Of a stretch of 32,000 nt of DNA, positions 1 through 29,288 are shown in pieces. Every line of letters starts with the position of its first letter. Position 1 is the first letter of the stretch. The stretch spans positions 3,630,001 through 3,662,000 of the forward strand of contig NC_009483.1 of assembly GCF_000016745.1 (NCBI RefSeq), in the 5' to 3' direction. Origin of the DNA: Geotalea uraniireducens Rf4 (GTDB lineage: Bacteria > Desulfobacterota > Desulfuromonadia > Geobacterales > Geobacteraceae). A program made the translations under genes and the position numbers. A model generated the notes under the pieces. It had not been told where the DNA came from. It was given only the letters and a program-made list of their open reading frames with translations, and searched no databases.

Positions 1-575
1 GACGCCTTGCTCCTTCCACTGCATGCCCACGGAGGCCTGGGAGACCCCTATTTCCTTCCAGCGGACGACCTGCCGTTTCCCCTCCTCGTAGCGGACCCGA
101 TCGTCGGCAGGACACCGGCTGTTGTATTTCAGCTTTTCTACTGTTTTGTCTGCATCTTCCGTCGAATCCACTGCGATCAGTTGGCCGGTCAGCTTGGGAT
201 TCTCCTGGTGCGCTGTTTTTAGTACTCCATTGAGCGCGGCCAGAAGATTTCCCTCCCCATTATTGGGAATTACCATCTGAACCAGAACTTTGCCTTTAGG
301 TTTCTCATTCAGCAGGCTCTGGATTTGTTCGAATACCTGCTGTGCATAGACCGGGAAGCGCTTTTCCATCTCCCGCTCTTCAGAGCTGATGATGAGGCTA
401 CGAACTCCGTCCATTTGAACTTCAACTCCTTCTTTCAGGACATTGCTCATCTGGCAAAGGATGACCAGATGCCCGGCATACTCCGGCGCTCTGCCTTCCT
501 TAACATCGGCCGGTGCCTCCCAGACCGGCTTAAGCACCAAGGTTTCTTGATCCGCCGCTGCGCCGACCGTGCCCT
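1..575 (-). other. Gene D KR3, N-terminal structural part only (cut by the window edge)
   Basis: Collinear with the pre-Rossmann regions of KR1 and KR2: ...VLVQMVIPNNGEGNLLAALNGVLKTAHQENPKLTGQLI...VRYEEGKRQVVRWKE. Confidence 0.6.
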
Positions 576-6500: not shown

Positions 6501-9500
6501 CAACATGAGGCTGATCCTTGGGAACGTACTCCTCGATTACCACGTGCGCATTCGCGCCGCCGAAACCGAACGAGCTTACGCCGGCCCGGCGCGGCAGCTC
6601 GTTGCCGTTTCCGTCGCGCAACGCCTTCCATTCCCGGTTTTCCTGGACGATGTAAAAGGGACTGTTCTCCAGCTGGATGTAGGGATTGACGACATCGCAG
6701 TGAAGGCTTTTGGCGAGGGTTTTGTATTTGAGCTGCTGAATGACTTTGATGACGCCAGCGATTCCGGCAGCGAGTTCCAGATGGCCGATATTTGTCTTGA
6801 CCGAACCCAATCCGCAATGAGCGCTGGTGACTTCCGGTTCTCCCGTCGCCCGATACAGCTCTTTAAAGGCAGCCTTGAGACCGTTGATCTCTATCGGATC
6901 GCCCAGCTCGGTGCCCGTTCCATGGGCCTCTATGTAGCCGACCGTCCTCGGATCGATTCCTGCCGTGGTATACGCTGACGTCAGCAAGTCGGCCTGGGCT
7001 ACGGGGTTGGGCGCGGTGAGCGAATTGGCGCGGCCTCCGTGGTTCTCGGCAGTTCCCCGTATTACGGCGTGGACATGGTCGTTGTCGCGCTCCGCGTCCT
7101 TGAGCTTTTTGAGGAAGAGCACGCCGACCCCCTCGCCCCGGGCATACCCGTTGGCCCGGTTCGAAAAGGTTTTGCAGCGGCCGTCTTCGCAGAGCATTCC
7201 GGCCTTGCTGAAGCTTAAGTGAAGCTCAGGAGAGACGATGGTATTAACTCCGCCGGCGATGGCCATCTCACAGGTACCGTCTTGCAGTACGGCGACTGCG
7301 CGATGGATTGCGACGAGGGAACTGGAACAGGCGGTTTCAATGGGTTCGCTCGGGCCGTGGATATTGAGAAAATAACTCATTCGGTTCGGCCCAACGGAAG
7401 CAGCCACCCCGGTGGCGGAATATGCTTCAATGGCTACCTTGGCCCGAGAAAGCAGCTCGCTGTAGCCGCTGGTCGCGGTTCCGGCGAAGATGGCTGTATT
7501 GGTTCCGGAAAGGCTTTGAGCCGAGTAGCCAGCGTCTTCTATTGCCTTCCAGACATGGGTCATCAGCAATCGCTGGTTGGGATCCATGATCTCGGCTTCC
7601 CGGGGAGAAATCCCGAAAAACAAAGGATCGAACTCGTCAACGCCGTCGATAAAGCCGCCACATTTGGCGTTAGTTTTGTTCGCTTCTTTCGCGGGATCGC
7701 CGTAGTAGCGCCGCCAATCCCACCGGCTGTTCGGGATCTCCGTGATGCAATCCCTGCCGTCCATCAGGTTTTTCCAGAACTCATCCACATCCGATGCGAA
7801 CGGGAACCTGCCACTCAATCCCACAATTGCCACGGGCTCAAACGAAGACGCAGACGGTTTCGCTACGGCTGGCGCAGCCGTCACCGCAAACCGTGGGTGC
7901 CGTCGTGTGCCAGGGGTGGTTTCTTCAGCCCGGTCCTCCTCGGCGCGCGCGGCAGCCTTAGTCTGTACCTTTGTCTGAACATTTGTCTGTGCTCCTAATG
8001 ATGAGCTAAAGGCTGAACTGTGTGCTTCCACTAGATATTTGGCAAAGCGGCTGAGGGTCGGGTATTCGAAGAAAACCGTCGGAGCCAGCTCGAGCTTGTA
8101 TTCCCGGTTGAGCGTGTTGGCAAACTGAGTCAAGCTGACCGAATCAAAGCCGTAATCATTGAGTTCGACATCGGCATCGATATCTGCGAGCTTTACTCTC
8201 AGTAATTCGGAAACTGCCTGCATCAAAATGGACAGCACTTTTTCCTGCAGGCTGCTGGAATCGATCTCAGACAAAGTACCTGATGCTACGGGAACGGTTT
8301 TCGGCTGGGCACCTGCGGGAGTCATCAAGGAGTCGAGTTTTTGTCTGATGCGGCCAAGCCTGCCTTCCATAACCAGGACTTGTCCTTTTTCGCTGGCCAG
8401 GCCCTGATATAAGGCGCGAATGCCGGTTGATGTCTGCAGGGGGATCATCCCCCAGGACTGCAGCATCATCTTCTCGGCATCAGGATTTACCTGCATCCCT
8501 CCTTCTTTCCATAAAGGCCAATTTAACGACAGCGCCTTTCCTCGTCGTTGTCCTACCTCTGCCAATTCATTACGATATTGCGCATACGCATCCATAAATC
8601 CATTCGCAGCAGCGTAATCCGACTGGCCGGCATTTCCCAACACCCCCGCCAAGGATGAAAACAACAATAGAACGTCCAACTCCATCCCGCTAATTGCCTC
8701 TTCAATCGCCATTAATCCTTTTATTTTTGGACGTAATACTTGCTCAACGTCCTTTCTATTCTTTTTTACTATATAGCTATCCCTTATCACTCCTGCACTA
8801 TGGATGATGCCATGTACCCTTCCATACTTTCCTACTACCTCCTTAATAAGGCTCTCAATTTGGTCATTATCCGTGACATCTGCCTGGTAGTACTTAACTA
8901 TCGATCCATTAGCTTTCAAGCCTTGTATTATGGACTCTTTATCGGGAGTCAGTTCGGACCTTCCTGCTAATATTATTGTGCATTCCTTCAAGTTCTCAAC
9001 AATGTCCCTGGCAAATATTAGACCTAATCCGCCAACGCCACCGCTTATCAGGTACACCCCTTTTTCTTTCCACGGCAATCTGGGTATTTCTCTGGCGCTT
9101 GCCAGCTCTCTCATTTCGGCTATCGACCTGTTGCCAGCTTTATACTTTATAGATTTCCCCGCTTCGCTCCGCGCGTTATCTTTCAGTATCTTTGTTACTC
9201 TCTCAGCATCTTCAATGTCTTCGAGCTCTATCATTTGCCAATCGATATCGGGATGCTCCTGCCGTGCTGTTTTGAACAGTGCGGCATGCCCGGCGAACAG
9301 TCGTCCCTCTCCCGTAGCGAATACTACGGCCTGAATCAGGACTCTTCCGGGCTTTCTTTTTACTATGCCTTGAATCTCTTCGAGTATCCCGACCGTGTAA
9401 TTTTCATATCTTTCATCGATCGGCACTCCATCTTTTCCGGGCCGCAACGTAATGACCCGCGATCCTTCCAGGCTTGCTACTATCTCCTTTTCCGTTGCCG

Positions 9501-10428
9501 GCCCCGGTTCATACAGAACTACAATTTTTTCGGCGTATGCCTCCATCGGTATGGCAGTCGACGCTTTTTCTTCTTTCCATTCGGGATGAAACAGTATCAC
9601 CCTATTGTCCTTATCCTTTTCTCCACTCATCTCCCTTGCTGCCAAACCTTTCATACGGACGCAGACATTCCCTTCGTGATCACATAGGTCAATGTCGATG
9701 GACTCTAACCTACCCGCAGCCTTTTTTCCCTTTCCGTAGCGCGCAAAAGCCCACATGGATTCATGCCACTTTCCTTTTATCTCCACTCTTTCCATGGCAT
9801 AGGGCACTACTGCCACTTCGCCAAGTCCGTCAATCAAACCCATTGCAGCCTGCAATGCAGAATCCAGCATCGAAGGGTGGAGTACATAGTGGTCCGATTC
9901 GCTTTTCACACAATCCGGCATGCTAAGTTTTGCCAGAACTTCTCCATCCCTAGCATAAACCCTTTCTATGCCGCGATGCCCGGGTCCATACTCAATTCCC
10001 ATCTTGCCGAACGCTTCATAATACTCTTCCGACGACACCTCTCTGAGCCATCTCTGCTCCAGCATCGTTGAAATGGCTATTCTTTCCGTCTCACCTGCTT
10101 TGGTTACCTCAGCAGAACCATAGCTATGCGCAACAGTCTCTCCGTCAACATTGGTGCTGCAGACTTCAAAATCTATTTCACCGTTATCGTTCGCTGCTAC
10201 TCCGACAAATAGATTGACCGGATTATCTTCAACTACCACAGGCAAAAGCCACGCTACATTTTTCAACACTATTTCCTGCATTTGGCTTTTATCCAGGTTT
10301 AATGCAGACTCGACAGCTGCCCTCGCCATCTCCAGATAGGCAACCCCCGGCAATATCTTCTTACCATTTATTTTATGATCTTTAAGAAAAGATTCATTGC
10401 CTTTTAGGCAGCTTCTGAATTTCAACAT
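1..10428 (-). CDS. trans-AT polyketide synthase subunit, 3'-truncated by the window edge: DH-KR-ACP-KS-DH-KR-ACP-KS-DH-KR(partial)
   Basis: Absent from the ORF track because no stop lies in the window. ATG at 10428-10426 is preceded by GGAGGAG (10431-10437) and an in-frame TGA at 10444-10446. The frame is open to base 1 (3476 codons); any in-frame stop would have produced a listed ORF ending at 10428. My translation starts MLKFRSCLKGNESFLKDHKINGKKILPGVAYLEM. It contains KS motifs IETACSSSL/EAHGTGT/NIGHLELAAG and DTMCSSSL/EAHGTGT/NIGHCESAAG, KR GGVGGLG and GGAGNLG, and ACP GFDS and GIDS. Confidence 0.9.
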   Translation of the reverse strand, partial: MLKFRSCLKGNESFLKDHKINGKKILPGVAYLEMARAAVESALNLDKSQMQEIVLKNVAWLLPVVVEDNPVNLFVGVAANDNGEIDFEVCSTNVDGETVAHSYGSAEVTKAGETERIAISTMLEQRWLREVSSEEYYEAFGKMGIEYGPGHRGIERVYARDGEVLAKLSMPDCVKSESDHYVLHPSMLDSALQAAMGLIDGLGEVAVVPYAMERVEIKGKWHESMWAFARYGKGKKAAGRLESIDIDLCDHEGNVCVRMKGLAAREMSGEKDKDNRVILFHPEWKEEKASTAIPMEAYAEKIVVLYEPGPATEKEIVASLEGSRVITLRPGKDGVPIDERYENYTVGILEEIQGIVKRKPGRVLIQAVVFATGEGRLFAGHAALFKTARQEHPDIDWQMIELEDIEDAERVTKILKDNARSEAGKSIKYKAGNRSIAEMRELASAREIPRLPWKEKGVYLISGGVGGLGLIFARDIVENLKECTIILAGRSELTPDKESIIQGLKANGSIVKYYQADVTDNDQIESLIKEVVGKYGRVHGIIHSAGVIRDSYIVKKNRKDVEQVLRPKIKGLMAIEEAISGMELDVLLLFSSLAGVLGNAGQSDYAAANGFMDAYAQYRNELAEVGQRRGKALSLNWPLWKEGGMQVNPDAEKMMLQSWGMIPLQTSTGIRALYQGLASEKGQVLVMEGRLGRIRQKLDSLMTPAGAQPKTVPVASGTLSEIDSSSLQEKVLSILMQAVSELLRVKLADIDADVELNDYGFDSVSLTQFANTLNREYKLELAPTVFFEYPTLSRFAKYLVEAHSSAFSSSLGAQTNVQTKVQTKAAARAEEDRAEETTPGTRRHPRFAVTAAPAVAKPSASSFEPVAIVGLSGRFPFASDVDEFWKNLMDGRDCITEIPNSRWDWRRYYGDPAKEANKTNAKCGGFIDGVDEFDPLFFGISPREAEIMDPNQRLLMTHVWKAIEDAGYSAQSLSGTNTAIFAGTATSGYSELLSRAKVAIEAYSATGVAASVGPNRMSYFLNIHGPSEPIETACSSSLVAIHRAVAVLQDGTCEMAIAGGVNTIVSPELHLSFSKAGMLCEDGRCKTFSNRANGYARGEGVGVLFLKKLKDAERDNDHVHAVIRGTAENHGGRANSLTAPNPVAQADLLTSAYTTAGIDPRTVGYIEAHGTGTELGDPIEINGLKAAFKELYRATGEPEVTSAHCGLGSVKTNIGHLELAAGIAGVIKVIQQLKYKTLAKSLHCDVVNPYIQLENSPFYIVQENREWKALRDGNGNELPRRAGVSSFGFGGANAHVVIEEYVPKDQPHVAIAPPNPAIIVLSAKNEERLKEQAQLLVAAIRERQFSDADLVNIAYTLQVGRDAMEERLALIPQSVQELSEALTKYCEGREGIEKLYRGQVKPNKEALSVFSMDEELQEAIEKWMERGKYSRLLGLWVRGQQFDWNKLYRDPKPRRVSLPTYPFTKERYWVPETREQKPEYQEQRIHPLLHQNASDFSEQRFSSTFTGEEFFLTDHVVRGRKVLPGVAYLEMARAALEQAAGAEEPKAGIRLKNVVWARPIAVDAQPVRVHIGLVPNDTGEITYEIYSDSQANGAEPLVHGQGAAEFLSTRETSTLDIEALQAECTQESLSSSQCYEAFLQMGFEYGPGHRGIVEAYVGVGQVLAKLSLPDSVSQTDGQYVLHPSLMDSALQASIGLIRGQDQGGALKPVVPFALQELDVLGTCTPSMWTLIRYGKGSKPGDSVQQLDIDVSDEHGKVRVTMRGLSLKGLDGEVRPGASTAIGTVMLEPVWNEQSVAEEATAADQAEHLVLLCGQDDLTHEEVTRLMSGARCISFHSEQKGIGERFGDYALQAFQEIQSVLRSKSKGKLLVQVVFSGQGDGQLFGGLSGLLKTARLENPNFGWQLIEVETRETSESIVEKLKGNSRSALDQQIRYQGGKRFVCGWREVASFQEQASIPWRDRGVYLITGGAGNLGLIFAKEIANRVTGATLILTGRSPLSEVKRAQLRELEASGARVEYQQVDVSQKDAVAGLIQALVEEFGSINGIIHAAGVTRDSFIIKKTNEEFLEVLGPKVGGLVHLDQASQHLELDLVLLFSSAAAAAGNLGQADYAAANAFMDAYAAYRNDLVARNERRGRTFSINWPLWQEGGMQVDAETRQMMLQTRGMIPLPTATGIAALYQALACGKNQIMVIDGDPQRVTAGIIAQPSRAELRKDVSPVVENGVAPEVTQDSLRDKASDYFKKLVAAGIKLPAHRVDVDAPMERYGIDSIMVLQLTNELEKVFGSLPKTLFFEYQTIQALSGYFLESHRDQLMGLLEIEQTPTAAADTSQNSVAAPKPAQPVASNRRPSRFASRAAAREEKANEVSDIAIIGVSGRYPGAGNLGEFWKNLRDGKDCITEIPKDRWDHSLYFDADKNKQGKTNSKWGGFLDGVDLFDTLFFNISPREAEIMDPQERLFLQCVYETLENAGYTREALGLHQGGGLEGNVGVYVGVMYEEYQLYGAQETAKGRPLALAGNPSSIANRVSYFCNFHGPSMAVDTMCSSSLTAIHLACQSLQRGGCEVAIAGGVNVSVHPNKYMFLGQGKFVSSKGRCESFGEGGDGYVPGEGVGAVLLKPLAKAVADGDQIYGVIKASTINHGGKTNGYTVPNPNAQASVIGRALQQSGVHPRTISYIEAHGTGTSLGDPIEIAGLAKTFQEHTKEKQFCSIGSAKSNIGHCESAAGIAGVTKVLLQLKHRQLAPSLHSEVLNPNIDFSTTPFVVQQQLAEWKRPVVEINGQTREYPRIAGISSFGAGGSNAHVVIEEYIPEGGERIPVRVSAQHPAIVVLSAKNEKRLEEQARRLLGAIQERQFSDADLADAAYTLQVGREAMDARLAMVVASIKDLEEKLSGYLDGKSDLEHLHKGHVKRDRDNDSAWLYAVDEDMAKTIDAWVSKGKYARLLDLWVKGLNFDWNRLYGAAKPHRISLPTYPFAGDRYWVPEIAQTAGASALLPVAHSIHPLLHQNTSDLTEQRFSSIFTGEEFFLADHAVSGEKILPVAAYLEMARAAVDRAAGSWNPSQKGISLKNIVWARPITVTGQPVQVHVGLFPKDNGEIGYEIYSESTEHSAETIINSQGSALFGPVADIPVINLLDVQSECDRELSSAQCYDAFKTMGSEYGARHRGIERAYAGSTTVLAKLSLPSSISETEDHYLLHPSMLDSAMQASLLIVGEPASMAAPKPMVPSTLHQLEILQRCTSLMWAVIRSGNSGEAAGRANNVDVDLCDENGSVCVRMRGLSFRVLEGGQGTVGAAADQETLVLKPVWEAPADVKEGRAPEYAGHLVILCQMSNVLKEGVEVQMDGVRSLIISSEEREMEKRFPVYAQQVFEQIQSLLNEKPKGKVLVQMVIPNNGEGNLLAALNGVLKTAHQENPKLTGQLIAVDSTEDADKTVEKLKYNSRCPADDRVRYEEGKRQVVRWKEIGVSQASVGMQWKEQGV
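580..1445 (-). other. Gene D DH3 (motifs intact)
   Basis: HPLLHQNTSDLTEQRFSSIFTGEEFFLADHAVSGEKILPVAAYLEM; YLLHPSMLDSAMQ. Confidence 0.8.
2010..3335 (-). other. Gene D KS2 (Cys-His-His intact)
   Basis: IAIIGVSGRYPGAG, DTMCSSSL (Cys 2803-2805), EAHGTGTSLGDPIE, SNIGHCESAAG, GSNAHVVIEEY. Confidence 0.85.
3500..3740 (-). other. Gene D ACP2
   Basis: PMERYGIDSIMVLQLTNELEKVFG; the D-S dipeptide is encoded at 3622-3627. Confidence 0.8.
3830..5105 (-). other. Gene D KR2
   Basis: GVYLITGGAGNLG (~4507-4550); GNLGQADYAAANAFMDAYA (~4060-4125). Confidence 0.8.
5110..5975 (-). other. Gene D DH2 (motifs intact)
   Basis: HPLLHQNASDFSEQRFSSTFTGEEFFLTDHVVRGRKVLPGVAYLEM; YVLHPSLMDSALQ. Confidence 0.85.
5440..5975. 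repeat. Dispersed nucleotide-level repeat, copy 1 (N-terminal half of gene D DH2)
   Basis: By-eye alignment to about 20680-21215. There are 4 mismatches in the 60 nt of 5881-5940 versus 21118-21177. Other 60-nt blocks are roughly 78-90% identical. Confidence 0.75.
6525..7840 (-). other. Gene D KS1 (Cys-His-His intact)
   Basis: VAIVGLSGRFPFA, IETACSSSL (Cys 7327-7329), EAHGTGTELGDPIE, TNIGHLELAAG, GANAHVVIEEY. Confidence 0.85.
8020..8270 (-). other. Gene D ACP1
   Basis: ELNDYGFDSVSLTQFANTL; Ser codon 8140-8142. Confidence 0.8.
8340..9620 (-). other. Gene D KR1
   Basis: GVYLISGGVGGLG (9021-9060); GNAGQSDYAAANGFMDAYA (8581-8640). Confidence 0.8.
9625..10428 (-). other. Gene D DH1 (lacks its own HPLL segment)
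   Basis: MLKFRSCLKGNESFLKDHKINGKKILPGVAYLEM; YVLHPSMLDSALQ; ends ...CVRMKGLAAREMSG. Confidence 0.8.
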
Positions 10429-10454
10429 AACTCCTCCGCTAGATCAGACATATT
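10414..10454. repeat. Direct repeat, downstream copy (contains the gene D SD and start)
   Basis: 31 of 41 positions are identical to 10750-10790. The perfect 17-nt core AACTCCTCCGCTAGATC lies at 10429-10445. Confidence 0.8.
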
Positions 10455-10745
10455 TAAAACAAGGGGTTGAATCGACACGTTTTGCGGCGTGAGGGACTGT
10501 TTTCGCCACGAGGACGGCCCCAACGGTTTCTTCGAAGCAATCGAAGCGGTCGATCAGCTGGCATTGGCTGTCTTGCCTGTATGCAGGGGCAGCGATTTTT
10601 GACCGAGCGAGCCTTTCAAGCGAGAACAGCGTGGGGCTTGTCCGTACATTACCAGGCCCGCGGGTGACGGAGTGGCAAATGCCAAGACAACCGTGAAAGG
10701 AACTATGCCGACGGGAGGTTTGATTAATCTCTTTCCACAACGTTA
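10429..10745 (-). other. 317-nt spacer between gene C and gene D, nature unknown
   Basis: This is the only sizeable non-PKS sequence in the window. I counted 160 G+C in 10441-10740 (53%), against 37-47% in the adjacent 60-nt lines. It is bracketed by the 336-nt-period direct repeat. Confidence 0.5.
10431..10437 (-). promoter_or_regulatory. Shine-Dalgarno of gene D (GGAGGAG)
   Basis: Minus strand reads GCGGAGGAGTTATG. This SD lies inside the downstream copy of the 41-nt direct repeat. Confidence 0.7.
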
Positions 10746-13700
10746 CTAGGTCGAACTCCAACGAAACTCCTCCGCTAGATCCGATATGTTTTCATGCAAC
10801 AAAGGGTGGATTTGGCTGACGCTATGACTTCTTTCAAATTTCGTCCCCTTCATTCCTGCTACCCAGTATTTGTCTCGTGCGAACGGATAGCCTGGCAGAC
10901 TGATCTTACCGGGCTTCTCCTTCACATAGATCATGTCCCAGTCAATGGACAGTCCATTTACCCATGTATCAAGCAGTTTTTCATGGTTCTTTTCGCTGTT
11001 CCAGTTGCGAACCGCCTTTTGAAGTTCTTCCTCCGTGGCAGATCGGATCGATGCGTCCTTATTCCTTTTTGCTTGCCCGCGATATATGTCAGTACTATCT
11101 GTTTCATCTTTCAGATAGTTGTTGAGTTTTCCCCTAAGCTCCAGGATTGTACTGGCCGTGAAACCAAGCCTTTCCTCCATCGCCTCGCGCCCCACCTGCA
11201 AGGTATAGGCAATATCCGGCAGGTTTTCATCTCCTGGTCCGGACGTGGCCAGCCACTCTACCAGGTCTCTCACCCGCTCTTTCAATCGCTCTTCGTTCTT
11301 CGCCGACACGACTATCAGCGCAGGATGTTCTCTACTTGGTGTGGGTGGATTTTTCTTTTCTGCCACGTACTCCTCTATTACTACATGCGCATTCGCGCCA
11401 CCTGCTCCAAACGATGATATTCCTGCAATTCTAGGTGTTTCGCTGTTCCAATCTGTCAGTTCTCGCTGTACTTTAAATGGCGTGCTGCCGAACTCGATGT
11501 TCGGGTTCAGCTCAGCCGCATGTATGCTTGGCACCAACTGCTTATGCTTCATCTGCAATAGAACCTTCGTTAATCCCGATATTCCGGCAGCACTTTCGCA
11601 ATGCCCTATATTCGATTTCACTGATCCAATTGCACAAAATTGTGTTTCGTCGGTGTACTGATGGAACGCCCTGGTTAACCCGGCTATTTCAATCGGGTCC
11701 CCAAGCGAGGTGCCAGTCCCATGAGCCTCTATATAGCTGATGTCGCGAGCATTGAAGCCTGCCCTTTCTATCGCTTCCCGTATCACTTCTCCTTGGGCAG
11801 CGGGATTCGGGACGGTGTAACCGCTTGTCTTCCCACCCGAATTGATCATGCTTCCTCGTATAATTCCATATATCTGATCACCATCTTCTTCTGCCTTACA
11901 TAGGAGTTTGAGCAGCACAGCCCCCACTCCTTCCCCGGGGATATATCCGTCTCCGCCTTTACCAAAGCTTTCACACCTTCCCTGGCTAGACAAAAAGTTC
12001 CCCTTTGACAACACGAGATATTTATTCGGATGAATCGACAGATTTACTCCACCCGCGATCGCCGCATCGCATTCACCTCTCTCTATACACAGGCATGCCA
12101 AATGAAGAGCAGTCAGCGATGATGAACACATCGAATCTACCGCCATACTTGGCCCGTGGAAGTTGAACGAATAAGATACCCGGTTGGCTATCGATGCAGG
12201 GCTTCCCACTAAAGCCGTATTCTTTCCGACCTTTTGATCCTGTGCTCCGTAGAGCTGGTACTCCTCATACATTACTGCTGCAAACACACCGACTCTTGCA
12301 CCCAACCTGTCTTTCGTTTGGTCGTTTAAACGTTCTCTGGTATATCCGGCATCCTCGAGCGTGTGATACGCGCACTCCAGAAACAGTCTCTCCTGTGGGT
12401 CCATGGACTCTGCTTCTTTGGGCGATATATTGAAAAACAACGGGTCGAATTCGTCTGCTCCTGATATAAATCCGCCCCATTTACTGTAAATCTTTCCTTC
12501 TTTCCCCTTCTCCTCGTTAAAGTATTGCTTCCAATCCCATCTTTCCTCAGGTATCTCGGTTATACTGTCGGTACCCGCCTTCAAGTTGCCCCAAAACTCA
12601 TCCAGGCTTCTCGCTCCCGGATACCTTCCGGATACTCCAACGATGGCTATGGAACTATTTCTGGCATTCTTTTCCTCATAGCCTTCTGTCTCAGAAATCA
12701 AATCCTTCAGCAGAACAGGCAATTCGACTCTTTGCATTTGCACATTGATAAATTCCGCTACAACATCACCACCTTCAGTCACAACCATCGCGTCGTATGA
12801 TATGGAATCGGGGTTTTCTATCCTTACCTTCTTCACAACATATGCGTAATCTGCGACTCGTTTGAAAACTGTCATTTTCTCTATTTTTTCCAGCACGCTA
12901 ACCTTTTTCCCGAGACCATCCGTGTCGCAGAGCAAATAACAGATTTTCAACAGACGAGAGTCCGCTATTTTAGTTCGTTGCAATCCTGTATTAACACTGC
13001 CAGCCGTTTTGATATGGTAAATGGATGTTGTGCCATTGTATTTCCACTCAGCTTCTATCAAACAACTTTGTCCTGGGTCTCCGATTCTACGGCTAGTCAC
13101 TTCCTTAGATTTATTAATTATTGATTTTATATCTACTCTCTGAAGCCTTTCATGCTCATTTCTTTGATAAAATCCCGAGCAGACAGTCTCAGGTTTGGAT
13201 TCACCAGTTGCATGCTTGAAGACGTCAAACCCTAGTTTAGCTCCTTGTTCATTTAGCTTTACCTCTATCTCAACATTTTCGCTCTTCTTCAATCCTATGG
13301 GCCCGCCGGAAACCCGAACATCATTGAGCTCTACGGGGTAACCTCCGTAGCTATTTCCCAAATAACTTTCCACAGCAAGACAGGGATATGCCAATCCTAT
13401 GATTGCGCGGCGCCCATACATCAGATGGTCTTGCAAGAATGGCTCACTTCCATAAAACTTGTACTTGTTAGAAGATATAGTGGAGGCTACGTTTTTCGTG
13501 CTCGGAAAGCTTTGGGGTTGTGTTCCTCCTTCAGCTAATTTCTTCTGCAGGTACTTGGTCAAATCCAGAAAGTTACTATATTCAAACAATAAGCTTGGGC
13601 TTAGTGCAAGCTGGAAACTTTGCTCTATATCTTTGACTAACTCCAAAAGTTGAGAGGATTCCAAACCTAGCTCAAAGAACCCTACGCTATTCTCAAGCTG

Positions 13701-14693
13701 ATCCATTTGGATGTTGATGTATTTTGCAAATACTTTTTTCAAGGCCCTTTCTAAAGAGGTAACGCAGGAAACATTTGCTTCATCACCCTCATAATGATCT
13801 CTTGTCTTAACGCCTTCATGCCGTTCTATCTTTTCTACCTTTACCCGCTCAGGGTCCATCTGATCCCGGTCTTTCACTCGCTTTACCGTCAAGCCTTTCA
13901 GCTTTGCGACCAGGCGCCCTTCGGGATTGAAGAAGTCCATATCAATGGTGGCAATATCATTCACGGTGCGAATCAATGACCTGTCAATCCTCACATAACA
14001 GCGATCCAACAGTGGCCCTTTGCCATGGAACGACTCATAGGATATAGGCAGGTACATTTCCTCTTGGCTACTACCGGGCATCCTTTCCCGGATCAAGATC
14101 ATCGAGGACATTGCTGCGCCATCTAACAGTGCGGGGTGAAACATGTAATTCGCTGCGACCTCATTGTTTGCAGCCTCTGTGTTTACATCTACTAAACAAC
14201 CCGTGCTGGTTACATATATATTCCCTTTCGCCTTTATCATCCCCTGATGGACCAGTCCGACTTTGCTCGCTTGGGAATATATCGATTCCAGGTCATACTT
14301 CTTGGTGGATGCCTGCTTCACCGTTTCAACATCAATCAGCTCTTCAGGCATAACCTCGTTCAAGTGTAGTTCAACCGTTACAAATAGCTTCCTTTGCTTT
14401 GATGGTCCGGTGGCATTGTTTTCGAAGCTTTCAACACTAATTTTCCAGTATCTTTGTACATTCTCGAATGTAATTCTAAGTCTGACCGGGTTTTCATTGC
14501 TTACCACCAGCGGATTATATATGGCCAAGTTCTTGAAGCAGTGATCATCCCTTTGAATTTTCAGTTTCTCTTTCGCCAGTTGACTCAGCATATCAATGTA
14601 GGCCAAACCTGGCAGTACAGACCGTCCGAATATCTGGTGGCCTTTTACTATCGGATTATCCAAAGTCAAATTACACTCAAATATATTTTGCAT
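10746..14693 (-). CDS. trans-AT polyketide synthase subunit: DH-ACP-(extra DH-like hot-dog)-KS-flanking subdomain-short HPLL tail
   Basis: ORF track 10746..14804 (1352 aa, TTG-initiated). Preferred start is ATG 14693 (MQNIFECNLTLDNPIVKGH...) with GGGGAGAG at 14698-14705. This N-terminus aligns with the gene B N-terminus (MQDQYRISSNHPIVRNH). KS motifs: VDSMCSSSL, EAHGTGTSLGDPIE, SNIGHCESAAG. Confidence 0.88.
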   Translation of the reverse strand: MQNIFECNLTLDNPIVKGHQIFGRSVLPGLAYIDMLSQLAKEKLKIQRDDHCFKNLAIYNPLVVSNENPVRLRITFENVQRYWKISVESFENNATGPSKQRKLFVTVELHLNEVMPEELIDVETVKQASTKKYDLESIYSQASKVGLVHQGMIKAKGNIYVTSTGCLVDVNTEAANNEVAANYMFHPALLDGAAMSSMILIRERMPGSSQEEMYLPISYESFHGKGPLLDRCYVRIDRSLIRTVNDIATIDMDFFNPEGRLVAKLKGLTVKRVKDRDQMDPERVKVEKIERHEGVKTRDHYEGDEANVSCVTSLERALKKVFAKYINIQMDQLENSVGFFELGLESSQLLELVKDIEQSFQLALSPSLLFEYSNFLDLTKYLQKKLAEGGTQPQSFPSTKNVASTISSNKYKFYGSEPFLQDHLMYGRRAIIGLAYPCLAVESYLGNSYGGYPVELNDVRVSGGPIGLKKSENVEIEVKLNEQGAKLGFDVFKHATGESKPETVCSGFYQRNEHERLQRVDIKSIINKSKEVTSRRIGDPGQSCLIEAEWKYNGTTSIYHIKTAGSVNTGLQRTKIADSRLLKICYLLCDTDGLGKKVSVLEKIEKMTVFKRVADYAYVVKKVRIENPDSISYDAMVVTEGGDVVAEFINVQMQRVELPVLLKDLISETEGYEEKNARNSSIAIVGVSGRYPGARSLDEFWGNLKAGTDSITEIPEERWDWKQYFNEEKGKEGKIYSKWGGFISGADEFDPLFFNISPKEAESMDPQERLFLECAYHTLEDAGYTRERLNDQTKDRLGARVGVFAAVMYEEYQLYGAQDQKVGKNTALVGSPASIANRVSYSFNFHGPSMAVDSMCSSSLTALHLACLCIERGECDAAIAGGVNLSIHPNKYLVLSKGNFLSSQGRCESFGKGGDGYIPGEGVGAVLLKLLCKAEEDGDQIYGIIRGSMINSGGKTSGYTVPNPAAQGEVIREAIERAGFNARDISYIEAHGTGTSLGDPIEIAGLTRAFHQYTDETQFCAIGSVKSNIGHCESAAGISGLTKVLLQMKHKQLVPSIHAAELNPNIEFGSTPFKVQRELTDWNSETPRIAGISSFGAGGANAHVVIEEYVAEKKNPPTPSREHPALIVVSAKNEERLKERVRDLVEWLATSGPGDENLPDIAYTLQVGREAMEERLGFTASTILELRGKLNNYLKDETDSTDIYRGQAKRNKDASIRSATEEELQKAVRNWNSEKNHEKLLDTWVNGLSIDWDMIYVKEKPGKISLPGYPFARDKYWVAGMKGTKFERSHSVSQIHPLLHENISDLAEEFRWSST
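10749..10826 (-). other. Gene C C-terminal tail carrying the HPLL N-terminal segment of a DH (DH-docking-like)
   Basis: HSVSQIHPLLHENISDLAEEFRWSST-stop aligns with IHPLLHQNTSDFSEQRFSST of the intact DH domains. The rest of that DH starts gene D. Confidence 0.65.
10750..10790. repeat. Direct repeat, upstream copy (encodes NISDLAEEFRWSS of the gene C tail)
   Basis: Perfect 17-nt core at 10765-10781, exactly 336 nt (112 codons) from the other copy. Confidence 0.8.
11366..12655 (-). other. Gene C KS (Cys-His-His intact)
   Basis: IAIVGVSGRYPGA, VDSMCSSSL (Cys 12126-12128), EAHGTGTSLGDPIE, SNIGHCESAAG, GANAHVVIEEY. Confidence 0.85.
12715..13480 (-). other. Gene C second DH-like hot-dog domain of uncertain function, located between the ACP and the KS
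   Basis: KYKFYGSEPFLQDHLMYGRRAIIGLAYPC. His codon is at 13425-13427 and HxxxG is present, but the conserved Pro is replaced by Ile. I found no recognisable DxxxQ/H motif in the C-terminal half. About 250 aa. Confidence 0.55.
13535..13765 (-). other. Gene C ACP (GLES variant)
   Basis: SVGFFELGLESSQLLELVKDIEQSF (13651-13668 encodes GLESSQ). Confidence 0.7.
13876..14693 (-). other. Gene C N-terminal DH-type hot-dog domain, partner of the gene B KS0
   Basis: DNPIVKGHQIFGRSVLPGLAYIDM; YMFHPALLDGAAMSSM. Paralogous to the gene B N-terminal domain. Confidence 0.7.
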
Positions 14694-17600
14694 CAAACTC
14701 TCCCCAGACGTTATGAACTGAAGAGTGAGCAGCTTTATCTCTTGTTTCCCGTTCTTCATTTGAATCTCTGTTGGTCGCTGTTGATAAGGTAACGCCCGTT
14801 CCAAGGGTTCGTTTATTCAATACAGGAGCTGGCAGAGAGAACAACCGCTGGGTATAGTTCCCTTCCGGAACAAATTCTTCCATGATCACATGGCAATTGG
14901 TACCTCCATCGGGGAATGAATTCTGGGCGGCAATGCGCTTCATCCCTGGCGCTACCAGCCAGTCGGTGCATTCCCTATTGAAACCAATACGTGACGCTGT
15001 GAAATCATAATGTTCAAACGGTTCCATCGCGGATAAGAATGGCGGTATCTTCTTCTCTTCGAGGCTGAGCATGCACCGTATAAACCCGGCCAACCCTGAT
15101 GTCAGGAGAAGGTGCCCAATGTTTGGCTTTATCGATCCCACTGCACACGGCTTCAGTTTGTTGTCATCCAGCCGATATATCTCCGACAGCGCTTTTATTT
15201 CTATTGTGTCTACCACTGGTGAACCACCGCCATTAACTTCGATATAATCTACTTCTTCCGGCTTTTTCCGGCTAAGTTCCAGAGCCTCCTTCATCACTTC
15301 TTTTTGAGCATCTATATTAGGCGAGCCAGGACCCAACGTCCTTCCGTCATTATTTACCGCTATCGCCTTGATAACCCCGTATATCTTGTTCCCATCCCTT
15401 ACCGCATCGCTTAACCTCTTCATTAATACCAGCCCTGCCCCTTCTCCCAGGACCTCTCCTTCTGACTGGTTCTCAAATATTTTAAACTCTCCATTCTTGC
15501 TCAGTATATTTCTCGCCTCAAACAATCTATGTGTAAACTGATTTAAAATCAGGCTCACCGCTCCAACCATCGCCATATCAATTCTTCCGCGTTTTAAGGT
15601 ATCCGACGCCATTGATATCGCCGTTAACCCTGACGAACACGCTGTGTCTAGCACCAAGCTCGGCCCCGTGATATTGAAGAATCTCGATATGTTGGTCGCG
15701 AGATAGTTCTGTCCTATCCCCAAAATCGGGTTATTCGCCTCCAATATCTTTTCCATATCCGGTATTACCTGGGCACGGCCCCCCACATACACCCCGACCC
15801 TTTGGCCTGTGATGTCCTTACTTTCATACCCAGCGTCATAGACCGCCTTAAGACTTTCTTCAAGTATCAACCTGGCTTGCGGATCCATTATCATTGCGTC
15901 GTTTTCTTTCAACTTGAAAAACTCGGGATCGAAGCTATCTATATCGTCGACCCACCCGCCATAATCTCTCCTTCCATTACTTTCCCACCGGCTTTCCGAT
16001 ACTTCCCGAATCGCCTTTTTCCCTTCTGTCAGCAATTTCCAATAGGCGTCCTTGGTTGGAGAATCAGGGAAGCGGCAGGAAATCCCCACTATCGCTATCT
16101 CTTCTTCCCTGCTATCAAAATCTACTCTGTAATCGTTATCGTACTCATCGTTTTCTTCTTCCACCTCTTCATATACTGCTTCAGCTTCTACTCCCAATAG
16201 ATCCTTCAATTCCTGTGCATGGTTATCAACAAAGTACTTGGTCAATTCATTTAAGGTCTTGTTTTCCAATACTACCGACGGCGAAATCGGCTTGGATATT
16301 TTCTTTTGTAATGTCTGTACAATTTGAGCAATAACGATCGAGTCCACCCCGTATTCATCAAACGGCCTCGTTTCGTCAAGTTGAGCATCGTTTAACCTTA
16401 ATTCTTGTTTGAAAACCTCTTTAAGCCATTCTCTGACCTCTACATTCAATTCCTTGCCTACCGTTTTCTTCCAGGTGACCGCTTTAGTTGTTTTCCTTGA
16501 TGGCTTTAGCTCGGTCTTCTTTACTTCTATTTCGGTTTTTAGTAACTCGTTTCTTTTAAATCTTTCCGGATTAACCACGCATGGCAGTGATACGTTAGGC
16601 CCCGCCTCACGGATTACATCCAGAAGCTCCATTCCTTCTCTGTTCGATATCGATTCCAGCCCGGAGTTAATATATACAGGCGTCTTCACCCCATCGGTTG
16701 TAGCCACCATCCCAGCTTCACGCCAGGCCGGCCACTGTACCGATTTTATATTTCCCTCCCCTGTTCTGCTCATTGCAAAGTAATCCATGTAGCTGTTTGC
16801 CATGGCATAGTCACTCTGTCCGACAGATAATGCCGGCAATATGCTGGAGACCGATGAAAACAGTATGCTGAATTTCAGCTTTTCCTTCCTTAGCGCTTGA
16901 TGCAAGTGTACGACCCCCTTAATCTTCGGGGCGCACACATCCTCTATTTCTCCTATTGGCTTCCTGGTAAACGCAGGGTCTTTACCGGCCATTCCCGCGC
17001 AGTGGAACACTCCGGTTATCTCTCCTAATTCCTCCCTGACTTTTGTCACCATCCTATTGACGGCTTCTTCGTCAGTTAACGGTGTGTCGTAATACTGTAC
17101 CCTTACGCCTACCTCTACATACGACTGCAGGGTTTCAATCTTTTCCTTCCTGCCGGCTTCGTTTTTCCATTCCTCGACAGGGGGTAACTTTTCTTTCCCA
17201 AGGATTACCAGTTTCCTTACTCCTTGCGAAACTACCCTTCCTGCGATCGCCCTCCCTATTCCCCTGGTGCCTCCGGTTATCAGTATCACGTCATCTTGTT
17301 CGTACCGGATCGCTGTCTGTGCCCCTCTTATTTCATCTTCTGTCATTTTCACTGCCAAAACCGGCTCGTACCTTTCCTCGTTCCGATAGCAGCACTCGGT
17401 TACCTTCCCCTTGTTGCTGCTCATCAGTTCTTTTTCTATTTGACTTTCTAACTTCTCGATATCATTTTGATTCAATCCCAAATCACTATCCATCGTAGCG
17501 GATCTAATCTCCTTATATTCGGCGCTCAACATCCTGTAGAGACCGGCCAGTCGTGCTCCTTGCATGCTCGGCGCATGATTACGGAAATCATTGAGCAGGT

Positions 17601-20600
17601 GGGTTACCTGGAGCAGTTTGAATCCTTTTTCCCGGTCATTCTCTATGAGCTTCTGTAATAAGCGGAGCTTCCCTGCTTCTAGATCCAGCGACTCTTCATA
17701 TTTCGGGTCCAGCGCGGTTATGTCTATTAATCCTAAGAGCCTGCTCTCGCCGCCCTTTTCTTTGATACGCCGATACAGTTCCTCTCCGTTATCAGATACG
17801 TAGAAATCAGTGGCTATTATCCCTTTTTCTACAGATGTTCCCTGCACCACAATTATGACTTGGATGCCTTCTTTTTCTTTAAATATCATTGTTGCCAGTT
17901 CTGTTGTATTTGTTGTCCCCAGAATGATAAGGAAAACATCGTTCATTACCGAATCGGATTCTATTTGAGTTCTTTGCCACTCCTTGGTCAAAATCATTGC
18001 CTCGCGTCTATATTCTTTGTTTCTCTTATTCATCTCTGTTTTGAGTATCGGTATCCAGTATTTTTCTCTGGCGAACGGATACGCGGGCAGACTGATTCTT
18101 ACCGGTTTTTCCCTGTCATAAATCTTGTTCCAGTTTATGGAGAGTCCTCTTACCCAGAAATCAAGCAATTTCTCATATTTTCTCTTGCTGATCCAGTTAT
18201 CGACCGCCTTTTGAAGGTCTTCATCTATTGCGAATTGGCTAAAGGTTTCTTTATCCCTCTTTGCCTGCCCGCGGTACAGATCAAAGCTATCCACCTCTCC
18301 CTTCAGGTATCTATTGAGTTTTTCCTCTAGCTCCTGGATTGTACTGACCGTAAATCCAAGTCTTTCCTCCATTTCCTCGCGTCCAACCTGCAGCGTATAG
18401 GCGATATCGGCCAGCTTTTCATCTCCATAACCAGCCCTTTCTACCCACTCTGACAGATCTTTCACCCGTTCTTTCAGTCTTTCATCATTCTTCGCCGACA
18501 GTACTATTACCGCAGGGTTTTCTTTGCTTATCGTACATAGCCCTTTCTTTTCTACCTGGTACTCCTCCATTACCACATGGGCGTTGGCGCCACCTGCTCC
18601 GAAAGCCGAAATCCCCGCCCGTCTCGGCAGTTCCCGTCCGTCGATCAAGGGGCGTTTCCATTCCGCGAGCTCCTGCTGCACCACAAACGGAGTGTCGCCG
18701 AAATCGATATGAGGGTTCAGTGTCTGGGCATGCAGCGAGGGCGCTAACTCGCCGTGCGCGAACTGCAGCAGCACCTTCGTCACCCCGGCGATTCCCGCTG
18801 CGCTCTCGCAATGCCCGATGTTCGATTTCACCGATCCGATGGCGCAGAACTCTTTGTCGTTGGTGTATTCCCGGAACGCTTTGGTCAATCCGGCGATCTC
18901 GATCGGGTCTCCCAGAGAGGTGCCGGTACCGTGCGCCTCAATATAACTGATGCTCCGCGGATCGATCCCCGCTTCCTGAAGCGCCCCTACCACAACACCG
19001 GCCTGGGCCTGCGGATTTGGAACGGTGTAGCCGTTGGTCTTCCCGCCGTGGTTGATCGAGGTGCCCTTGATCACCCCGTAGATGTGATCCCCGTCGGCAA
19101 TCGCTTTCGAAACCGGCTTGAGCAGCAATGCCCCGACACCTTCTCCGGGCACGTAGCCGTCTCCGCCCTTGCCGAAGCTTTCGCATTTCCCCTTGCTCGA
19201 CAAGAATCCGCTTTGCGACAGCATCAGGTACTTGTTGGGATGAATCGATACGTTGACCCCGCCGGCAATGGCCACCTCGCACTCGCCGCGCCGGATTCCC
19301 TGGCAGGCGAAGTGGATCGCGGTCAGCGAGGAGGAGCACATGGTGTCGACCGCTATGCTGGGCCCCTGGAAATTGCAGAAATAGGACACGCGATTGGCGA
19401 TCGAGGAGGAAACGCCCCAGCAGGAAATCGGCCTCCCCTGGATTTGCTCCTGCGCCCCGTAGAGCTGGTACTCGTCGTACATTACCCCGACGTACACACC
19501 TACATTGCCGCGAGCCCCGCCTTTCCCGTTGACGCTCAGATTTTCCTTGGTATATCCGGCGTCTTCCATGGTCTCATACACGCATTCCAGGAACAGCCGC
19601 TCCTGCGGGTCAATTATTTGCGCTTCTCGAGGAGAAATGTTGAAGAAGAGAGGATCGAACAGGTCCACGCCATCCAGGAACCCTCCCCACTTGCTGTAGA
19701 CTTTTCCGAGGATGCTTTTGTCTGCATCGAAGTACAGGCCGTGATCCCAGCGGTCTTTCGGGATTTCGGTGATGCTGTCCCTGCCCTCCCTGAGATTCTT
19801 CCAGAATTCCTGGAGGTCCCCTGCCTGAGGATAGCGGCCAGAAACGCCGATGACCGCGATATCAAACGCTCCCTGCGCCAGTTCCTTTTCATTTCGTGAG
19901 GTAGCGCGAACCGACCCAAGACGCGAGCGACCGCGCTTGTCGGGAGATGCCGCAGCTCCTTCAACAAAAGCGAGATGTTGGAGCCTCGCATGGGAAACCA
20001 GCGGTTTCTCCTGGATGCCCAGTGCCGCCTTCATCTGATCCGGGTACGAGGCGAGGAAATATGAGGTCACTTCCCTGATGTTCCGGTATTCGAAAAACAG
20101 GGTCTTGGGAAGCGAGCCGAAGGTCTTTTCCAACTGGTTCGTCATCTGCAGGACCATGATCGAATCGATCCCGTATTTTTCCAGCGCGGCATCGGTTTCG
20201 ATCCGTGAAGCCGGCAGCCCGATCGCAGAAGAAAGCAGCTGTTTGAAATAATGTTCAGCCTTCTCCCGGACGGTATTTCCCTCAAACGCCAATGCTGCGG
20301 CATGCAGGTTTCCATCGAGGTCGGAAACAACCGCGTAGCCGCGCGATGATCCGGTCGAATCCGTCTTTCCTTCCACCCCCCTCACTGAGAGTCCTCTCAG
20401 ACTCGCGCATACCAGTCCCGTCTCGTCGCACAGATCGATATCGAACTTTTCCTTGTCGCCCGTCGCGCCATTGTCGGAAAGGCGGACCCATGACCAGGTC
20501 ACGGAAGTACAGGAACTGAATATCTCCACATCCCTTACCGCAAAGGGAAGCACGGACTTGCGCTCGCCGGAACTCGTCAGGAGCAAACAGGGTTGCAGGG

Positions 20601-29286: not shown

Positions 29287-29288
29287 TT

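Follow-up and report, generated by a model that had tools for sequence, protein, structure and literature searches.

Why should ten kilobases in the middle of a polyketide synthase (PKS) assembly line differ so sharply from the rest in base composition? The question is raised by a stretch of 32,000 nucleotides (nt), here called the window, from the orphan trans-acyltransferase (trans-AT) PKS cluster of metal-reducing Geotalea (Geobacter) uraniireducens Rf4 (Geobacterales, phylum Thermodesulfobacteriota). A reading of the letters without database searches (the sequence-only reading) had proposed that a multi-module cassette from a low-G+C donor was grafted into this assembly line. Four independent observations supported it: foreign codon usage, discordant relationships of ketosynthase KS3 and the flanking subdomain (FSD) behind it, a collinear series of modules at 40-47% G+C elsewhere, and recurrence of the junctions. 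Because of these we consider it likely that the middle ~10 kb is a block of modules, foreign and joined in frame, which the assembly line acquired by recombining with a trans-AT PKS that was related but far lower in G+C.

The Rf4 chromosome was read within the window only, and domains were called with Pfam and by internal BLAST among the window proteins. The minus strand carries every long reading frame. The genes, the block and its junctions are as follows.

29292..32000, minus strand: gene A, 3' part, extending past the window; KR-ACP-KS0 (EANGSGT)
14677..29292, minus strand: gene B, open reading frame of 4871 residues; DH-ACP-KS1-FSD-DH-KR-ACP-KS2-FSD-DH-ACP-KS3-FSD-KR-ACP-KS0
18586..29292, minus strand: high-G+C part of gene B; DH-ACP-KS1-FSD-DH-KR-ACP-KS2-FSD-DH-ACP-KS3, with host-like codon usage
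10746..14693, minus strand: gene C, 1315 residues; DH-ACP-divergent DH-like region-KS-FSD plus the opening strand of the following DH (HPLLHENISDLAEEF)
1..10428, minus strand: gene D, with its ATG at 10428 and its frame open to 10443, leaving the window on the left; DH-KR-ACP-KS-FSD-DH-KR-ACP-KS-FSD-DH
8380..18561, minus strand: low-G+C module block; from gene B the terminal FSD-KR-ACP-KS0, gene C entire, and from gene D the initial DH-KR
18553..18585, minus strand: right junction; composition changes directly behind NAHVVMEE (18562-18585), the C-terminus of KS3
8350..8540, minus strand: left junction; where the first KR of gene D reaches its C-terminus, near KGQVLVMEG, with an intermediate zone to ~7950

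Mean G+C was 46.4% over 8650-18560, as against 57.3% over 1-8340 and 57.7% over 18586-32000, a step of ~11 points. Lines of 60 nt gave 0.464 +/- 0.066 inside the block and 0.575 +/- 0.066 outside it. With 500-nt windows the two ranges did not overlap, none in 8501-18500 lying above 0.506 and none outside below 0.508. The eight 60-nt lines counted by hand in the sequence-only reading were exact on recount (0.333, 0.317, 0.35 and 0.417 inside; 0.60, 0.633, 0.717 and 0.70 outside), but they are extreme ones: the low-G+C block is real, while the true step is ~11 points and not the 30-40 they conveyed. Profiles of G+C and of G+C at third codon positions (GC3) had been proposed as a check, and they set the block apart from its flanks: in-frame GC3 was ~0.49 in the block and ~0.68 outside, GC1 and GC2 (first and second positions) were lower as well, and both G+C and GC3 were even across the three portions contributed by genes B, C and D.

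The boundaries were placed as maximum-likelihood change points, with 2-lnL intervals as support. On the right, GC3 changed from 0.692 to 0.502 at 18553 (18523-18661; log-likelihood gain 72.8), and the change point for all positions was at 18579 (18538-18593). The sharp boundary predicted at the end of KS3 was thus borne out, at 18553-18579 and directly behind NAHVVMEE. On the left, the GC3 change point was at 8476 (7948-8536; log-likelihood gain 46.4) and that for all positions at 7958. Fine windows were clearly low to ~8460 and intermediate to ~7980, the Pfam KR model of the first KR of gene D stops at ~8503, and the gene D ACP just beyond the junction (8032-8224) is of intermediate G+C. The left boundary had been put in the C-terminal part of this KR, at about 8450-8700; its best placement is right where the KR ends (about 8350-8540), and it is fuzzy. 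Gene D is accordingly split by composition, with DH-KR in the block and ACP-KS-FSD-DH-KR-ACP-KS-FSD-DH in the flank. The reading frames are open over both junctions, as had been claimed (ORF B 14677..29292; ORF D up to 10443).

Codon usage was compared as correlations of relative synonymous codon usage. The flanks correlated with the MFS, HlyD and OEP efflux genes of Geotalea at r=0.89, whereas the block did so at r=0.12. The block and the flanks correlated at 0.25, and the block with the last PKS gene and the trans-AT gene of the same cluster, which form a second low-GC segment, at 0.73. The encoded proteins followed: FYMINK residues made up 27% in the block versus 21% in the flanks, and GARP residues 24% versus 29%. 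The signature of horizontally acquired DNA was therefore found in all its compositional parts, G+C, GC3 and codon usage being off-host in the block and host-like beside it. Codon usage is also the one line of evidence that bears on the direction of transfer, and it suggests that the block is newer than the flanks.

We examined the relationships of KS3 and of the FSD behind it using pairwise identities only, no trees. KS3 was closest to a paralogue in the flank, the second KS of gene D (D_KS2; 77%). For the FSD behind KS3, identity was 67% with the in-block FSD of gene C but just 51% with the FSD behind D_KS2. In other KS pairs FSD identity lay 20-25 points under KS identity; here the two values were equal. 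The likeness of KS3 to D_KS2 is part of a longer one, since gene B DH-ACP-KS3 is paralogous to gene D DH-(KR)-ACP-KS2 (68%, 63% and 77%, with up to 83% nt identity in the DH). Because KS3 and its FSD have different closest paralogues, a seam probably runs between the KS3 core and its FSD, at the same place as the composition step.

Relatives of the block outside Geotalea were distant. The best full-length homologues of gene C were 46-55% identical, those of FSD-KR-ACP-KS0 47-55% (including Pelosinus fermentans, Methylomusa anaerophila, a Clostridia metagenome-assembled genome (MAG) and Bacillus), and those of gene D DH-KR 40-50%. Named relatives were mainly Bacillota (Pelosinus fermentans 48%, Methylomusa anaerophila 52%, the Clostridia MAG 50%, Bacillus, Paenibacillus). 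A Bacillus protein family of 747 members matched gene C over its full length at 41%, and in a scan of GTDB genomes the matches were a MAG of Bacillota (61% over the KS) and one of Myxococcales. The donor would have had roughly 40-47% G+C and may have belonged to the anaerobic Bacillota.

Homologous module series were found on three other contigs, L005, L008 and L013, at a local G+C of 0.40-0.47. L005 carries the full series KS-FSD-KR-ACP-KS0 / DH-ACP-DH'-KS-FSD-DH-KR (DH', divergent DH-like region; slash, protein break) in collinear order, and L013 and L008 carry a part each. Identity to L005 was 50-76% for the gene B and C parts; in gene D, the DH, pre-KR and KR parts gave 43-54%. On L005 the G+C drops from 0.44 to 0.34 at 16015 (15789-16058), which aligns to about position 8378 of the window, and the neighbouring genes are at about 30% G+C. 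Similarity to the window falls at the same KR end, from ~54-58% in the KR to ~20-29% in the ACP. It is suggestive that the left end of the block appears to coincide with the KR end in two unrelated contexts, Rf4 and L005. At the other end of the mid-GC series in L005 we found no clear boundary; the contig stops at 0.42-0.53 except for a 1.5-kb dip, and frameshifts are present. Of what marks a hybrid trans-AT PKS, then, we found a series common to otherwise unrelated lines (L005) and discordance over a junction, and not the donor. The contigs with homologous series are mosaic too: the L005 series at 0.44-0.47 has neighbouring genes, both PKS and non-PKS, at 0.29-0.36, on L014 the G+C dips to 0.30-0.38 for 1.5 kb (4500-6000), and on L008 (22680-24725) PKS genes at ~0.46 adjoin MacB-type and hypothetical genes at 0.59-0.60.

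The window has a close counterpart in a sister Geotalea lineage, represented by metagenome contigs JGI Ga0074193_1000088 (L004, 168 kb) and ENA ERZ27247098 (L001), which are 99.96% identical to each other. Sister and window are collinear, with nt identity of 93-99%, and at both junctions, which are in frame, the sister shows the G+C step too. For the comparison of Rf4 with the sister, dN/dS was 0.235, 0.17 and 0.226 in the three parts of the block (dS 0.10-0.21), 0.19 in the right flank (dS 0.21) and 0.13 in the left flank (dS 0.05). Because the junctions are common to both lineages, the mosaic is older than their split (dS about 0.1-0.2) and not very recent; and with dN/dS of ~0.2 it has apparently been kept functional, the block being under purifying selection like the flanks. 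Among block sites that differ in G+C class between the lineages, G/C was in Rf4 at 272 and in the sister at 215, compared with 222 and 209 in the right flank. This is a weak hint of ongoing amelioration of the block (about 2.6 sigma by a binomial estimate, without outgroup polarity).

The sister lineage also gives access to the rest of the cluster. The second low-GC segment (contig L006, 3524-9894) begins where a KS0 does, takes in the last PKS gene and stops where the trans-AT gene ends; it is at 0.446 G+C versus 0.555 and 0.531 around it. Its Rf4 counterparts are ABQ27258 and ABQ27259, and L006 3385-6274 is 74% identical at the nt level to window 16104-13257. The segment shows that the history of the cluster takes in more than one graft. 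A radical SAM gene near it is also low, at 0.43 G+C.

Several observations weigh against a simple graft from a foreign donor. The genome and metagenome scans yielded no donor or near-identical copy, only the sister lineage and distant relatives, the best outside Geotalea being ~50-55% identical. Best-hit taxonomy, which the sequence-only reading had offered as a way of telling block from flank, did not separate them: Bacillota dominate both at ~50-60% identity, and the nearest named relatives of the flanking gene A are mostly Bacillota as well (Paenibacillus, Bacillus, Peptococcaceae; 56-61%). L005 is a long-read contig full of frameshifts and is compositionally patchy itself. The host codon baseline consists of 1053 codons from three sister-lineage efflux genes that stand beside the cluster, near an integrase. 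The left boundary is diffuse (7950-8540), spread between the KR end and the ACP-KS linker. The KS0 of the second cassette is 85% identical in amino acids (aa) to the block KS0, and for the KS0 / DH-ACP core of the block this cassette is the closest relative (85%, 67% and 71% aa identity); judged from these identities, duplication inside the cluster, or gene conversion, has contributed to the history of the block. Finally, the essential trans-AT gene is itself low in G+C, which fits remnants of an imported cluster over a later graft.

One further reading goes beyond the single graft. The ~45% G+C series FSD-KR-ACP-KS0 / DH-ACP-DH'-KS-FSD-DH-KR might have moved repeatedly as a discrete cassette, with defined, non-canonical ends behind NAHVILEE of a KS and at the C-terminal end of a KR, and have entered assembly lines of hosts at ~30%, ~46% and 54-58% G+C. 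We put this forward tentatively. If it were true, the Geotalea copy would be a selected, functional natural fusion at a place where engineered fusions stalled; the fusion would owe its success to a same-clade KS standing ahead of the incoming cassette, and a second natural design rule for trans-AT PKS engineering would follow, at nucleotide resolution.

Of the rival explanations, the one that survives best is that the block is composite and arose by two or more acquisitions or conversions, for instance FSD-KR-ACP-KS0 / gene C in one and DH-KR of gene D in another, with the boundary between genes C and D as the seam. At that boundary a DH is split by the following insert.

10444..10748, no strand assigned: intergenic insert between genes C and D that splits a DH; 305 nt, with a core of 55% G+C (host-like) inside the 46% block

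The end of gene C is a short segment with the HPLL motif of a DH N-terminus, and the remainder of the DH opens gene D. The insert is bounded by an imperfect direct repeat of DH-coding sequence, a duplicated stretch of 25-45 nt with copies atatcggatctagcggaggagtt at ~10765-10787 and atatgtctgatctagcggaggagtt at ~10429-10453; GGAGGAG of the second copy stands at the expected position of the ribosome-binding site of gene D (ATG 10428). The L005 homologue, P0002, runs from the FSD into the DH unbroken. The C/D split looks like a secondary gene split and would not be an original subunit boundary. A host-like insert flanked by a duplicated DH-coding stretch at this very place is what a composite block might leave behind. 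The lower identity of the gene D portion to L005, unequal dS versus the sister over the sub-blocks (0.16, 0.21 and 0.10), and a second cassette highly similar only to KS0 / DH-ACP point the same way. However, G+C and GC3 are uniform over the three parts, L005 has the whole series collinear on one stretch with the order from FSD to DH-KR unbroken, and DH domains in general diverge faster than KS domains. On balance we think a composite origin unlikely. Between genes C and D the sister lineage carries a further insertion of ~245 nt (L004 16003-16248, at about window 10458), whose terminal inverted repeats, TAGTTTCC(A/G)TCCGGAAA, are 17 nt long. It resembles a miniature inverted-repeat transposable element (MITE), and no further copy of it was found in the sequences compared.

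A second rival reverses the polarity. The low-G+C parts (block, second cassette and trans-AT) would be the remnant of an imported cluster, and the high-G+C modules would have come later, by recombination with a resident or related Geobacterales PKS or by internal duplication. It draws on the low G+C of the free-standing trans-AT and the last PKS gene (0.446 on L006 3524-9894), on the internal duplication of flank modules seen above (DH2-ACP3-KS3 of gene B versus DH2-ACP2-KS2 of gene D; 68%, 63% and 77%), and on the Bacillota among the nearest named relatives of gene A. The host-like codon usage of the flanks (r=0.89) nevertheless requires that they resided for long in, or originated from, a Geotalea-like genome, and we regard reversed polarity as distinctly improbable. 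It would change the order of events only: the block would still be foreign DNA recombined at the same junctions.

An origin in situ, by local selection (e.g. for slow translation) or regional mutation bias and without any transfer, has nothing direct in its favour, although PKS domain types do vary in G+C. The same domain types (KS, KR, DH, ACP and FSD) are G+C-rich in the flanks, the switch takes place within about 50-140 nt, amino-acid composition moves with GC3, the FSD relationships are discordant, and homologous series elsewhere are equally intermediate in hosts of ~30% and ~59% local G+C. We rejected compositional drift in situ, as very improbable, on the domain types, the sharpness of the switch, the amino-acid shift and the FSD discordance. 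An assembly artefact that joined the PKS genes of two organisms at conserved KS and KR sequence, which the sequence-only reading had itself named among the findings that would refute it, was rejected as next to impossible: conserved PKS repeats do break assemblies (that of the sister at ENA is broken inside D_KS2, with a 141-nt overlap), but the source is an isolate chromosome of 5.14 Mb, the frames are intact with dN/dS about 0.2 across the block (0.17-0.24), and a chimera is ruled out because both in-frame junctions recur, under purifying selection, in the 168-kb JGI contig and the ENA contig of a lineage 5-7% different.

Returning to the graft as the favoured explanation, we considered what the block would contribute to the assembly line. 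The domains within it that matter here are the following.

18052..18528, minus strand: FSD behind KS3 (RhiE-like linker; PF22336/PF22621), ending in LPAYPFAREKYWI (18052-18090); low G+C
16708..17283, minus strand: KR of the in-block dehydrating bimodule (PF08659)
14827..16104, minus strand: in-block non-elongating KS0, with the first catalytic His replaced (EVNGGGS)
12651-13547, minus strand: divergent DH-like region of gene C, with weak DH similarity and an HxxxGxxxxG motif

The domain content given for the block by the sequence-only reading was correct by Pfam and internal BLAST, and so was its call of KS0, which has EVNGGGS in place of HGTGT. The DH-like region of gene C had no Pfam match at E<=0.001. 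The order KS-KR-ACP-KS0 / DH-ACP, the EVNGGGS motif of KS0 and the HQIFGRSVLP and HPALLD motifs of the first gene C DH together identify a putative dehydrating bimodule in the block. The cluster shows the marks of a trans-AT PKS, namely FSDs behind KS domains without a module AT, a free-standing AT (in the sister lineage), KS0 domains and split modules. The window has eight KS domains, six with a RhiE-like/CurL-like linker behind them, and no Acyl_transf_1 domain was found by Pfam within the ~9,700 residues of its proteins. In the sister lineage a 410-residue Acyl_transf_1 gene, outside the window, follows the last PKS gene; its 90% cluster includes ABQ27258, ACP S-malonyltransferase of Rf4. 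Two of the KS domains are KS0s (EVNGGGS in gene B, EANGSGT in gene A), and both lack the first catalytic His. The protein breaks A/B and B/C come directly after KS0, with a 17-nt overlap of gene C and the end of gene B, and the break C/D comes after KS-FSD, inside a DH. The gene C product is identical to P0249, which is on the same 5,136,364-bp NCBI record as Rf4 proteins ABQ27255-ABQ27259 (radical SAM protein, HlyD, MFS transporter, trans-AT and further PKS).

Other features of the high-G+C flank were noted. It also holds a dehydrating bimodule, made up of the gene A KS0 (EANGSGT; 29472-30689) and then DH-ACP of gene B (28720-29250). Its architecture is that of the in-block one, with identities to the in-block domains of 51% (KS0), 49% (KR) and 33% (DH). 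KS2 of gene B (21718-23037) has unusual active-site motifs (TAACSS, AHSTGS and KPLVGH) and is only ~44% identical to other elongating KSs. An Rfam scan of the whole window found nothing.

We propose that one homologous crossover took place in the conserved 3' end of the KS gene, just behind NAHVVMEE, and the other in the conserved 3' end of the KR, the frame being kept at each. The block would thereby have brought in a dehydrating bimodule (KR-ACP-KS0 / DH-ACP) with a divergent DH-like domain, a further elongating KS with its FSD, and the DH-KR of the next module. KS3 would extend the chain onto the in-block ACP and the in-block KR would reduce the product. KS0 would then hand the chain, unextended, to the ACP of gene C, where the DH of gene C would dehydrate it; the double bond may be a target of the divergent DH-like region. 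The gene C KS would extend once, and the in-block DH-KR of gene D would process this unit on the ACP past the junction (8032-8224). The net gain would be one extra C2 unit and one non-elongating dehydration step, and the most likely effect on the polyketide an extra conjugated or shifted double-bond unit.

Exchange of modules seems to have gone on within Geotalea as well. At the left end of the window, Rf4 and the sister part company immediately behind a conserved motif.

1474..1533, minus strand: LPTYPFAGDRYWV motif (1495-1533) of the FSD behind D_KS2; the structural departure between sister and Rf4 lies immediately behind it

Behind LPTYPFAG(D/E)RYWV the sister continues into KR-ACP-KS0 / a C-like gene / AT, and Rf4 into DH and further modules (L006 1-1400; L004 25209-25713). 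Read from the alignment, this is an apparent strain-level insertion or deletion of modules at ~1480, exactly at the published exchange-unit boundary (LPTYPFx5W). Rf4 and the sister are 99.3% identical over 2737-7836 and 93-95% identical over 7837-26460. The near-identical stretch (99.3%, dS 0.05) spans gene D from KS1 to KS2, about 1534-7839, beyond which identity is ~93-95% (dS 0.1-0.2) rightwards; the step, at ~7837, is the start of D_KS1. This suggests that the two lineages recently exchanged the D_KS1-KS2 stretch by homologous recombination. At the cluster end, a few kb past the efflux genes, there is a phage-type integrase gene, both on L006 (16758-18014) and on L010 (12973-13818), a Logan read-set assembly in which Rf4 protein P0251 occurs. 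Possibly the whole cluster is part of a genomic island.

No new mechanism is revealed here. Module-block recombination is already known, and the cluster is an instance of it that is unusually well resolved rather than a new kind of system. Published hybrid breakpoints are blurred by divergence; the right breakpoint of Rf4 is placed within about 50-140 nt behind NAHVVMEE. With its resolved breakpoints and a hybrid that purifying selection has conserved, the cluster offers a natural test case for functional fusion sites. It also indicates gene flow at the level of modules, into a Geobacterales organism of the subsurface and perhaps out of anaerobic Bacillota.

How does the block compare with known systems? 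In classical genomic-island logic, horizontally acquired DNA is compositionally atypical and then ameliorates. The block is likewise atypical in G+C, GC3 and codon usage, and an integrase lies a few kb past the cluster end; unlike a self-contained island, the foreign DNA consists of one whole gene and of in-frame stretches inside two giant genes. Dehydrating bimodules in which KS-KR-ACP-KS0 is split from DH-ACP occur in the difficidin, macrolactin and bacillaene synthases of Bacillus. The block resembles them in its order KR-ACP-KS0 / DH-ACP, in the break after KS0 and in a KS0 without the first catalytic His, but it has an additional divergent DH-like region between the ACP and the next KS. 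In gladiolin-type split modules, the interface between a KS subunit and a DH subunit has a C-terminal DH-docking element. The end of gene C is similar in being a short HPLL segment, with the rest of the DH on gene D; the difference is that the C/D split looks secondary.

Module-block exchange and recombination behind KS domains are widespread in trans-AT PKSs (Helfrich et al. 2021, PMC7930024), a study in which Geobacter is mentioned only for predicted glutarimide-type PKSs. We found no published description of the present mosaic in the literature on Geobacter/Geotalea uraniireducens polyketides or on the metagenome accessions. The natural hybrids (PMC7930024; the pederin/onnamide/psymberin and actin-binding macrolide families) share with the block a module series common to otherwise different lines (here L005, L008 and L013). 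As in Rf4, their junction is behind a KS, the upstream KS keeps its own relationships, and the hybrid is intact and selected. The Rf4 graft differs from them in that it retains foreign composition and codon usage and has a breakpoint that can be read to about 50-140 nt. In natural hybrids similarity falls behind NAHVILEE and decays over about 100 residues, so that the site was not localised (Mabesoone et al. 2024, PMC11260071). In that study fusions engineered at NAHVILEE stalled, and LPTYPFx5W at the C-terminal end of the FSD proved to be a working exchange-unit boundary. The break between Rf4 and the sister, behind LPTYPFAG(D/E)RYWV (1495-1533), falls at this proposed boundary, and the block holds whole units. 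Unlike an exchange unit, the block has its left junction at a KR end, not behind a KS, and its right junction, behind NAHVVMEE, is not at the boundary, lying ~155 residues upstream of the LPTYPFx5W-type site (LPAYPFAREKYW at 18052-18090); for this reason the FSD behind KS3 would be incoming DNA. Both kinds of site are thus present in one cluster, an old shared junction behind NAHVVMEE and a younger, strain-level break behind LPTYPFx5W.

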